Shown here in pieces: positions 24,824 through 57,462 of a stretch of 64,000 nt of DNA. The notes beneath the pieces were generated by a model that saw only the letters and a list, made by a program, of their open reading frames with translations, did no database searches and had not been told where the DNA came from. The first letter of the stretch is position 1. Each line of letters begins with the position of its first letter. Made by a program: the position numbers and the translations under genes. Origin of the DNA: Escherichia coli (lineage in GTDB: Bacteria; Pseudomonadota; Gammaproteobacteria; Enterobacterales; Enterobacteriaceae); the NCBI RefSeq assembly GCF_002854065.1, contig NZ_CP024147.1, one strand, 5' to 3'.

Positions 24824-24851
24824 AAAAAACCCCGCTCCGGCGGGGTTTTTT
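24824..24851 (+). terminator. Intrinsic terminator after rplY
   Basis: aaaaaaccccgc - tccgg - cggggtttttt: GC-rich stem followed by T-run. Confidence 0.75.
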
Positions 24852-26381: not shown

Positions 26382-28142
26382 ATGGTAACTCATCGTCAGC
26401 GCTACCGTGAAAAAGTCTCCCAGATGGTCAGTTGGGGGCACTGGTTTGCACTGTTCAATATTCTGCTTTCGCTCGTCATTGGCAGCCGTTACCTGTTTAT
26501 CGCCGACTGGCCGACCACGCTTGCTGGTCGCATTTATTCCTACGTAAGCATTATCGGCCATTTCAGCTTCCTGGTGTTCGCCGCCTACTTGCTGATCCTC
26601 TTCCCGCTGACCTTTATCGTCGGCTCCCAGAGGCTGATGAGGTTTTTGTCCGTCATTCTGGCAACGGCGGGAATGACGCTATTACTGATCGATAGCGAAG
26701 TCTTTACTCGTTTCCATCTCCATCTTAATCCCATCGTCTGGCAACTGGTTATCAACCCAGACGAAAATGAGATGGCGCGCGACTGGCAGCTGATGTTCAT
26801 CAGCGTGCCGGTTATTTTATTGCTTGAACTGGTGTTTGCGACGTGGAGCTGGCAAAAGCTGCGCAGCCTGACGCGTCGTCGACGCTTCGCGCGCCCGCTG
26901 GCCGCATTCTTATTTATCGCCTTTATCGCCTCGCATGTGGTGTATATCTGGGCCGATGCCAACTTCTATCGCCCTATCACCATGCAGCGCGCTAACCTGC
27001 CGCTTTCGTACCCGATGACGGCGCGACGTTTTCTTGAGAAGCATGGCCTGCTTGATGCGCAGGAGTATCAACGCCGTCTTATTGAGCAAGGTAATCCAGA
27101 CGCCGTTTCCGTTCAGTATCCGTTAAGCGAACTGCGCTATCGCGATATGGGCACCGGGCAGAATGTGCTGTTGATTACTGTCGATGGCCTGAACTACTCA
27201 CGCTTCGAGAAGCAGATGCCTGCGCTGGCAGGTTTTGCTGAGCAAAATATTTCGTTCACGCGCCATATGAGCTCCGGCAACACTACAGACAACGGCATCT
27301 TTGGCCTGTTCTATGGCATCTCGCCAAGCTATATGGACGGCATTCTGTCGACCCGTACGCCTGCGGCATTAATTACTGCGCTTAATCAGCAAGGCTATCA
27401 GCTGGGGTTATTCTCATCAGATGGCTTTACCAGCCCGCTGTATCGCCAGGCATTGTTGTCAGATTTCTCGATGCCGAGCGTACGCACCCAATCCGACGAG
27501 CAGACCGCCACGCAGTGGATCAACTGGCTGGGACGCTACGCACAAGAAGATAACCGCTGGTTCTCGTGGGTCTCTTTCAATGGTACTAACATTGACGACA
27601 GCAATCAGCAGGCATTTGCACGGAAATATAGCCGGGCGGCAGGCAATGTCGATGACCAGATCAACCGCGTGCTCAATACACTGCGTGATTCTGGCAAACT
27701 GGACAATACGGTGGTGATTATCACTGCCGGTCGGGGTATTCCACTGAGCGAAGAGGAAGAAACCTTTGACTGGTCCCACGGTCATCTGCAGGTGCCATTA
27801 GTGATTCACTGGCCAGGCACGCCGGCGCAGCGTATTAATGCGCTGACTGATCATACCGATCTGATGACGACGCTGATGCAACGCCTGCTACATGTCAGCA
27901 CACCTGCCAGCGAATATTCGCAAGGTCAGGATTTGTTCAACCCTCAACGCCGTCATTACTGGGTTACCGCAGCGGATAACGATACGCTGGCAATTACCAC
28001 CCCGAAAAAGACGCTGGTGCTGAACAATAACGGTAAATACCGCACTTACAACTTACGTGGTGAAAGAGTGAAAGATGAAAAACCACAGTTAAGTTTGTTA
28101 TTGCAAGTGCTGACAGACGAGAAGCGTTTTATCGCTAACTGA
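26382..28142 (+). CDS. yejM: Inner membrane protein YejM/PbgA/LapC (5 TM + periplasmic sulfatase-like domain)
   Basis: 586-aa ORF with N-terminal TM segments; matches YejM as recalled; proL tRNA immediately downstream. Confidence 0.92.
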   Translation: MVTHRQRYREKVSQMVSWGHWFALFNILLSLVIGSRYLFIADWPTTLAGRIYSYVSIIGHFSFLVFAAYLLILFPLTFIVGSQRLMRFLSVILATAGMTLLLIDSEVFTRFHLHLNPIVWQLVINPDENEMARDWQLMFISVPVILLLELVFATWSWQKLRSLTRRRRFARPLAAFLFIAFIASHVVYIWADANFYRPITMQRANLPLSYPMTARRFLEKHGLLDAQEYQRRLIEQGNPDAVSVQYPLSELRYRDMGTGQNVLLITVDGLNYSRFEKQMPALAGFAEQNISFTRHMSSGNTTDNGIFGLFYGISPSYMDGILSTRTPAALITALNQQGYQLGLFSSDGFTSPLYRQALLSDFSMPSVRTQSDEQTATQWINWLGRYAQEDNRWFSWVSFNGTNIDDSNQQAFARKYSRAAGNVDDQINRVLNTLRDSGKLDNTVVIITAGRGIPLSEEEETFDWSHGHLQVPLVIHWPGTPAQRINALTDHTDLMTTLMQRLLHVSTPASEYSQGQDLFNPQRRHYWVTAADNDTLAITTPKKTLVLNNNGKYRTYNLRGERVKDEKPQLSLLLQVLTDEKRFIAN

Positions 28143-28216
28143 TTAATTATAAATCAGTTAGCGAAATATCTTACTTGCAATCGGTGTGGAAAACGGTAGT
28201 ATTAACAGCCACGAGT

Positions 28217-28293
28217 CGGCACGTAGCGCAGCCTGGTAGCGCACCGTCATGGGGTGTCGGGGGTCGGAGGTTCAAATCCTCTCGTGCCGACCA
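28217..28293 (+). tRNA. proL: tRNA-Pro
   Basis: 77-nt cloverleaf sequence CGGCACGTAGCGCAGCCTGGTAGCGCACCGTCATGGGGTG...TTCAAATCCTCTCGTGCCGACCA with encoded CCA end; acceptor stem CGGCACG/CGTGCCG; anticodon loop contains GGG (assigned from memory of proL). Confidence 0.92.
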
Positions 28294-28303
28294 AAAATCC
28301 CAA

Positions 28304-28333
28304 AAAAAACCAACCGTAAAGGTTGGTTTTTTT
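28304..28333 (+). terminator. Intrinsic terminator after proL
   Basis: aaccaacc - gtaaa - ggttggtt followed by TTTTT. Confidence 0.75.
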
Positions 28334-28394
28334 ATATCTGCATTTAATTCGATAAACAGACCGTGACACATCACGGCCTGTTTATTGTCTGTTA

Positions 28395-45028: not shown

Positions 45029-45395
45029 GTGAAGTGCGGCACCCCGTAGGTTGGATAAAGCGGTCACGCCGCATCCGACATCTAACGCCCGAGCCGGTTG
45101 CCTGATGCGACGCTGACGCGTGTTATCAGGCCTACACCGCTGTGAAGTGCTCCACCCCGTAGGTCGGATAAGGCGGTTACGCCGCATCCGACATCCAACG
45201 TCCGAGCCGGTTGCCTGATGCGACGCTGACGCGTCTTATCAGGCCTACACCGCTGTGAAGTGCGGCACCCCATAGGTTGGATAAGGCGGTTACGCCGCAT
45301 CCGACATCCAACGCCCGAGCCGGTTGCCTGATGCGACGCTGGCGCGTCTTATCAGCATACGCCACATCCGGCATACCATGCCGGATGTGGCACAT
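45029..45395. repeat. BIME/REP array: three tandem 113-bp units plus a terminal perfect hairpin
   Basis: Unit starts at 45029, 45142 and 45255 (period 113), each carrying two REP-like palindromes; followed by perfect 14-bp inverted repeat gccacatccggcat/atgccggatgtggc (45361-45391) abutting the mqo stop. Confidence 0.85.
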
Positions 45396-57147: not shown

Positions 57148-57462
57148 GTAGGCCAGATAAGACGCGTTAGTGTCTTATCTGGCATTTGCACCGATTGCCG
57201 GATGCGGCGTAAACGCCTTATCCGTCCTACGATTCCCATTATTTCAACAGATTACATTAAAGTAGGCCAGATAAGACGCGTCAGCGTCGCATCTGGCATT
57301 TGCACTGAATGCCAGATGCGGCGTAAACGCCTTATCCGTCCTACGATTCCCATTATTTCAACAGATTACATTAAAGTAGGCCAGATAAGACGCGTCAGCG
57401 TCGCATCTGGCATTTGCACTGAATGCCAGATGCGGCGTAAACGCCTTATCCGTCCTACGAAT
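57148..57462. repeat. BIME/REP array: three tandem 114-bp units between convergent rcsB and rcsC
   Basis: Unit starts at 57148, 57262 and 57376 (period 114), each carrying REP-like palindromes (gccagataagacgcg...cgcatctggc and gccagatgcggcgtaaacgccttatcc); last unit runs into the rcsC stop codon. Confidence 0.85.

Follow-up and report, generated by a model that had tools for sequence, protein, structure and literature searches.

The coding sequence of yejM in Escherichia coli ends inside a perfect inverted repeat, and the gene for a proline tRNA, proL, begins a short distance downstream, which raises the question of whether this palindrome serves the end of the yejM message, the promoter of proL, both, or neither. 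The locus was analyzed in a stretch of 64,000 nucleotides of E. coli DNA, referred to here as the window; RefSeq annotation of identical DNA gives yejM, tRNA-Pro, and yejO in this region, in agreement with the gene names used in an earlier note on the sequence. We take yejM (pbgA/lapC) to be an essential regulator of LPS synthesis and proL to be a growth-rate-regulated tRNA gene.

The earlier note described a perfect 12-bp inverted repeat, with a 7-nt separation and with the TGA of yejM inside it, and suggested that it could be a protein-binding site or an RNA hairpin, affecting the 3' end of yejM or the promoter activity of proL. On recount, the left arm, cgctaactgatt, and the right arm, aatcagttagcg, are exact reverse complements on either side of the loop aattata (28145-28151). 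T28132 and A28164 also pair, giving 13 perfect pairs, so that the repeat had been slightly under-called, and a repeat search returns 16-nt arms with one mismatch at the same place. The last codons of yejM, ATC GCT AAC TGA, make up the left arm, and the stop codon does fall within it. The distance of 54 nt to proL also holds when it is counted from the end of the right arm to the start of the tRNA, which leaves 53 nt between them. The sequence after the stem, AAATATCTTACTTGC, is without a U-run, as had been remarked, and a terminator scan calls nothing there. The coordinates of the features are collected in Table 1.

Table 1. Features of the yejM-proL locus, in window coordinates
Feature	Position	Strand	Basis or description
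yejM (pbgA/lapC) ORF, 586 aa	26382..28142	+	ORF list; RefSeq annotation; homologues named YejM/PbgA
Whole palindrome	28132..28164	+	13-bp arms 28132-28144 / 28152-28164, 7-nt A/T loop; RNA fold
Left arm as first noted	28133..28144	+	Coding: Ile-Ala-Asn-stop, plus TT
yejM stop codon TGA	28140..28142	+	Inside left arm
Fis-like 15-mer GATTAATTATAAATC	28141..28155	.	G at -7, C at +7, A/T between; centre 28148
Right arm	28152..28163	+	Non-coding; 0.23 bits per column
proL -35 hexamer TTGCAA	28175..28180	+	TTGCA(A/T), 16-nt spacer
proL -10 hexamer TAGTAT	28197..28202	+	TA(G/C/A)TAT conserved; 7-8 nt upstream of mapped starts
proL transcription start sites (M+7 and M+6)	28210..28211	+	PMC5291269, transferred from tRNA 5' end 28217
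proL, tRNA-Pro(GGG)	28217..28293	+	ARAGORN; Rfam tRNA, 54.9 bits
proL intrinsic terminator	28303..28333	.	A-run, 13-bp stem, T-run: bidirectional in form; faces convergent yejO

As RNA, the palindrome folds with an energy of -18.1 kcal/mol (z = -6.69, none of 200 shuffled sequences being equally stable), and the 74 nt that separate yejM from proL contain no other strong structure; the stem is stable and yet AT-rich, with 4-5 G-C pairs of 13. The window contains seven perfect inverted repeats with arms of 12 nt or more and loops of 3-10 nt, whereas 100 first-order Markov simulations of it, taken as the chance level, yielded 0.02 on average; apart from the palindrome, the six are terminators or REP-like. 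The half-site has no second occurrence within the window, and across E. coli genomes the palindrome is single-copy, with a median of one place per genome. An Rfam scan with permissive settings recognized the tRNA alone and assigned no family to the repeat; weak sub-threshold matches lie over the proL terminator and none on the repeat. No mention of the 17-mer TGATTAATTATAAATCA was found in the literature searched, and nothing specific was found there on yejM in connection with proL, a terminator, or a UTR. With 0.02 such repeats expected per window, and with this one conserved in 20 or more genera beside a spacer that is saturated with changes, it is hardly credible that the palindrome is an accident without function; a repeat that is both conserved and constrained is not a chance repeat.

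A segment of 521 bases around the palindrome matches 5425 of 5426 complete genomes of the species, and the 61-mer from 28120 to 28180 is identical in 2683 of the 5425; K-12, in which the arms lie at about 2286127-2286157, is identical to the window at the palindrome. The twelfth pair, C28133-G28163, is polymorphic, position 28163 being A in three of four sampled variants, which results in an 11-bp stem. Among 44 unique E. coli-type sequences the GCT, AAC, and TGA codons are invariant, whereas third positions of Arg, Phe, and Ile codons vary. Absence of the element from close relatives would have spoken against it according to the earlier note, and that objection fails, since the element is shared by Escherichia, Salmonella, Citrobacter, Enterobacter, Klebsiella, and others. 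The non-coding right arm has 0.23 bits per column, compared with 1.33 for the next 11 nt, in 43 unique E. coli-type sequences (from Escherichia, Salmonella, Citrobacter, Enterobacter, Lelliottia, Leclercia, and others). On this comparative evidence the inverted repeat is genuine, and selection maintains it in enteric bacteria.

The manner in which the arms change is informative about what is being kept. Klebsiella, Raoultella, Kluyvera, Pseudescherichia, Atlantibacter, and others carry a left-side duplication of 4 nt (CTGATTGATT), and in these lineages the right arm has become AATCA(A/G)TCAG, so that a 10-11-bp stem is restored with the same 7-nt loop; the right arms found are AATCAATCAG or AATCAGTCAG, or AATCAATTGG with two G.U pairs. 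One lineage (L047) has kept GTTAG, has an 11-nt loop, and looks like an intermediate. In Cedecea, CTAATTGTTT pairs with AGACAGTTAG in 10 pairs, two of them G.U, and Mangrovibacter has kept GCTAACTGA/TCAGTTAGC around an unrelated 19-nt loop. When 32 Enterobacteriaceae are aligned without gaps and anchored on the centre, 85.6% of the cells pair, compared with 80.8 +/- 0.7 in column shuffles (reached in 0 of 500), and six of the 13 pairs change on both sides (11 of 500 shuffles); when the partners are slid by 1-3 columns, pairing falls to 13-42%. A wider set of 105 sequences gives 85.2% pairing against a shuffle maximum of 82.1%, but it should be recognized that all of these shuffles ignore relatedness and that there are few independent events, mainly the two-register shift and several single changes. 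Re-registered outer arms would not be expected to be tolerated by a base-reading protein, and the outer 7-9 bp therefore appear to be read as a nucleic-acid stem; the compensatory re-shaping points to a selected stem-loop. The cells that depart from Watson-Crick pairing, 44 of G.U type versus 36 of A.C type, hint faintly that the sense RNA is the selected strand, which is also favored because yejM is transcribed through the site, whereas the yejO/proL terminator shields the opposite strand. In lineages other than Enterobacteriaceae the stem is weak (z of -1.3 in Pectobacterium), and in Erwinia, where the stop codon and the promoter element lie apart, a hairpin following the stop is weak or absent (z of -1.95, -0.39, and +0.27); the hairpin is thus not an obligatory feature of yejM.

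These observations might be accounted for if the palindrome existed solely for a stem-loop at the 3' end of yejM, its nearness to the proL promoter being a matter of packing and the G-N13-C pattern at its centre a by-product of TGA and its complement. The stable fold and the compensatory re-shaping in several genera would be expected in this case, and protective stem-loops that have no U-run are a known class. A hairpin by itself, however, has no need of a loop held to A and T only, no 3' end is mapped at the hairpin in the Term-seq data of Adams et al., and the G-N13-C pattern keeps its distance from the -35 box in genomes that have little or no stem and, in Erwinia, away from the yejM stop. 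It is therefore distinctly unlikely that the repeat acts through RNA only, and the promoter of proL has to be considered.

An exact-match scan for the proL tRNA, with one genome per species, gave 118 Enterobacterales loci. The spacer from the yejM stop to the tRNA is 71-78 nt in 113 of the 116 loci that have a recognizable yejM end, and a promoter of the form TTGCA(A/T)-16 nt-TA(G/C/A)TAT is found in 111 of 115. A simple promoter scan of the window called no promoter at proL; the promoter is defined here by its conservation and by published start sites, which were mapped by primer extension and cDNA cloning (PMC5291269). The same study reported proL transcripts to be monocistronic only, with nothing longer in Northern blots or in about 350 cDNA clones (PMC5291269). 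From the starts given in Table 1, the centre of the palindrome lies at -62/-63, and in promoter coordinates the right arm extends from -58 to -47 and the left arm from -77 to -66. When the loci are anchored on the -35 box, a G-N13-C 15-mer with an A/T centre is present 32-34 nt upstream of the box in nearly all of 117 loci, and 6-7 of its central 7 nt are A/T in 103 of 105 unique sequences. The 15-mer persists where the stem is weak or absent, in Budviciaceae (GATTAAAACTAAAGC) and Pectobacteriaceae (GCCTAAATCTAAAGC), and it is kept in Erwinia (GGCTATTTTCATAGC) although the yejM stop there lies 89-132 nt upstream. The other monocistronic tRNA-Pro gene, proK, served as a control for a general feature of tRNA-Pro promoters and has no comparable upstream element. 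The comparison across families thus gives good support to the 15-mer being a conserved upstream element of the proL promoter.

Some further features of the proL promoter region can be recorded here. Within the spacer, two elements show conservation among genera: a TC that follows the -35 box, and a block GGAA(A/T) situated about 7-10 nt ahead of the -10 box. Position 28206, between the -10 box and the start, is A in the window (TTAACAGCC) and G in K-12 and four other E. coli (TTAGCAGCC). One locus, L046 from Enterobacter sp. JUb54 (NZ_CP060418.1), matches the 63-nt proL pattern exactly in a different context; a yejM end, a TTGCA promoter, and a palindrome are all missing upstream of its tRNA, which probably represents a second or relocated copy.

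The position and composition of the 15-mer bring to mind Fis, whose motif is about 15 nt long with an A/T tract between conserved G and C (PMC3064808). The sequence from 28141 to 28155 has the G at -7, the C at +7, and the A/T-rich centre of such a 15-bp core, and it agrees with the Fis consensus GNTYAAAWTTTRANC (PMC6907758) at 12 of 15 positions. A RegulonDB-derived network places proL in a module of Fis-regulated tRNA operons (PMC544888). However, with up to 3 mismatches allowed, the consensus has 33 sites in the window versus 49 expected by chance, and the match is not significant alone; the lack of a comparable element at proK also weighs against Fis. At position +3 of Fis sites a pyrimidine is expected, whereas the window 15-mer has A there. 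A tighter Fis-like pattern with a single match in the window was fitted to the site post hoc and is hence no evidence; the consensus sequences of IHF, FNR, CRP, SlyA, and the UP element, compared by eye, do not fit the site.

In comparison with the upstream activating sequences of rrnB P1, tyrT, and thrU-tufB, to which Fis binds, the proL element is similar in lying upstream of a tRNA promoter with a 16-bp spacer, at a fixed helical position, in having a 15-bp core with G/C at +/-7 and an A/T centre, and in belonging to a gene listed among the Fis-regulated tRNA operons. The well-studied Fis sites at stable-RNA promoters are centred at -71; the proL element differs from them in being centred at about -62, approximately one turn closer, in that the consensus match of the candidate site is not significant alone, and in that the palindrome greatly exceeds a Fis core in length and overlaps coding sequence. 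The upstream element of proL is accordingly described here as a putative Fis site, an assignment that is reasonable but unproven. Of the suggestions made earlier, that of a protein site or an effect on the proL promoter is supported by the fixed distance from the promoter, with a centre at about -62, but the match to the Fis consensus is no rarer than chance.

The same data may be read as a DNA site only, in which a dimeric protein, Fis or another, binds the core and the arms, not being selected as RNA, arise and stay perfect through template-switch ("quasipalindrome") correction, in which the coding-constrained left arm serves as the model for the right. Such correction occurs in E. coli, and the concerted multi-base change of the right arm from AATCAGTTAG to AATCAATCAG is as would be produced by one template switch; the fixed promoter-relative position across families and the weak strand asymmetry (the 44 G.U against 36 A.C cells) are also consistent with this reading. 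However, a 15-bp Fis core has no need of the outer 7-9 bp, which are nevertheless the best conserved non-coding bases, and in Mangrovibacter it is the outer stem that is retained while the core and loop are replaced. Moreover, it is not obvious how a neutral process would maintain a 7-nt loop in several registers. A function confined to DNA is thus considered somewhat unlikely, and the reading that is preferred gives the stem a role of its own in the yejM transcript.

With regard to that role, there is an established class of stem-loops that lack a U-run and shield mRNA ends from PNPase and RNase II (PMC6061677, Dar and Sorek 2018). The yejM structure resembles members of this class in being stable, at the end of a gene, and without a U-run or upstream A-tract, and its folding energy is within the range of terminators; it differs in that no steady-state 3' end is mapped at the hairpin and in that the sequence after the stem is not C-rich but is a promoter and a tRNA. 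At the hairpin (K-12 about 2286157-2286170) the tables of Adams et al. contain no 3' end; in the region they list only 2284559 and the tRNA end, 2286287. The suggestion of an RNA hairpin made at the outset thus gains from the compensatory re-shaping of the arms, which favors a nucleic-acid stem, whereas the 3' end of yejM that it implied is absent from these Term-seq data. Because yejM is expressed far below the tRNA, however, the missing 3' end and the missing yejM-proL co-transcript are weak negatives. The position at 2284559 corresponds to about 26565 in the window; it is a 3' end internal to the ORF, about 183 nt into yejM, and was scored as not Rho-dependent.

It has also to be asked whether the hairpin stops yejLM transcription ahead of the proL promoter as a non-canonical intrinsic terminator, so insulating this promoter from read-through. 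No other strong structure exists in the 74-nt spacer, the hairpin stands at a gene end as in intrinsic terminators, and proL transcripts have been seen solely as monocistronic species. Unlike intrinsic terminators, however, it has an AT-rich stem with 4-5 G-C pairs of 13 and no U-tract in E. coli (AAAUAUCUUAC, AAATATCTTACTT) or relatives (e.g. GCGACAGAUUCCC), the sequence that follows is not conserved, and neither the terminator scan nor the Term-seq data of Adams et al. indicate termination at the site. Since there is no U-tract in any lineage, the stem is not an intrinsic terminator of the usual kind, and a non-canonical one is very improbable. Termination at the hairpin assisted by a roadblock was rejected on geometry, as a polymerase halted by a protein bound to 28135-28161, or by another polymerase at the promoter, would be expected to stall before the right arm is transcribed. 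The C-over-G bias of a rut site is not found downstream, positions 28165-28216 having about 10 C and 12 G by manual count and being a promoter, and Rho is an unlikely terminator because just 53 nt of promoter DNA and then the tRNA follow the stem.

Two other known systems provide partial parallels. The secG-leuU mRNA-tRNA co-transcripts, which are cut by RNase P (PMC2241853), are like yejM-proL in combining a protein gene, a close tRNA, and an intrinsic terminator, but proL has its own strong promoter and is reported to be monocistronic, and its co-transcription with yejM is assumed. REP/BIME elements resemble the yejM-proL palindrome in that it lies in a 3' UTR and could stabilize the upstream mRNA; the palindrome differs from them in being single-copy, without REP sequence, and half coding. 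The stem is most likely a 3'-end protective hairpin of the yejM mRNA.

The reading that we prefer, put forward tentatively and as slightly short of probable, is that the palindrome is both an upstream activating site of proL, with Fis as the likely protein, and a protective hairpin of the yejM mRNA. Such a dual-use element would have arisen where the end of yejM is squeezed against the proL promoter. At the level of DNA, the A/T-rich centre flanked by G28141 and C28155 would activate the proL promoter from a centre at about -62; a Fis dimer would be the most likely binder and would bend the DNA and aid RNA polymerase as at other stable-RNA promoters. At the level of RNA, the 11-13-bp stem would be the last structure of the yejM mRNA, with no termination by the stem itself. 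Rare yejM transcripts would run on into proL and be cut by RNase P at the 5' end of the tRNA or by RNase E, and 3'-to-5' exonucleases would then trim them as far as the stem base, so that a stable 3' end of yejM would remain near 28165-28170. The existence and conservation of the repeat, its fixed position relative to the promoter, and the compensatory changes in its arms are direct observations of this analysis, and from them we infer that Fis would bind the 15-mer, that the stem would fold in vivo, and that it would protect against exonucleases.

A bolder version, which we regard as doubtful, is that the same 33 bp are read in three ways, as the last three codons and stop of yejM, as a Fis-dependent activating site of proL, and as a protective hairpin, that the arms co-evolve with the coding sequence, and that Fis or promoter activity could feed back on the 3' end of yejM. 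If this were true, control of the envelope would be tied to growth rate. If the dual-use model holds, the locus would be a clear case of the overlap of coding sequence, a protein site on DNA, and an RNA structure within 33 bp, and synonymous or 3'-tagging edits at the C terminus of yejM could disturb both the expression of proL and the stability of the yejM mRNA. The reach of this proposal is modest, since each component belongs to a well-known class; what is involved is probably a compact overlap of two ordinary types of element, which as such appears to be undescribed but would not surprise a specialist.

Several other features of the window are of some interest. The hairpin that follows proL (28303-28333) is symmetric, with the form A7-stem-T7, and could terminate transcription in both directions; K-12 and the window have different sequences in its loop and upper stem (CCAACCCTTACGGTTGG against CCAACCGTAAAGGTTGG). 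A second inverted repeat, with 15-nt arms, lies at 28352-28385 (ATAAACAGACCGTGA / TCACGGCCTGTTTAT), just past the stop codon of yejO (28395, minus strand), and is probably a hairpin at the 3' end of that gene. Other perfect repeats with arms of at least 12 nt are located at 45361-45391, 57152-57183, 57288-57320, 57402-57434, and 24824-24851. Among the repeats of the window, two identical copies of CGCATCTGGCATT...AATGCCAGATGCG and palindromes of the GCC(A/G)GAT type look like REP/BIME elements, and the repeat at 24824-24851 has the look of a bidirectional terminator.

A protein search for distant homologues of YejM returned E. coli clusters only. In E. coli O157 (L124/L125, NZ_AP018488.1 4548000-4550000), proK sits just downstream of eptB, the gene for an LPS-related inner-membrane enzyme that has the same fold as YejM. 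The eptB gene ends in GCT AAC TAA (Ala-Asn-stop) and yejM in GCT AAC TGA, and the alignment of YejM with EptB is weak (22% over 169 aa, E = 0.004). The yejM-proL and eptB-proK pairs may represent an old duplicated unit of a gene and a tRNA, or their likeness may be a coincidence.
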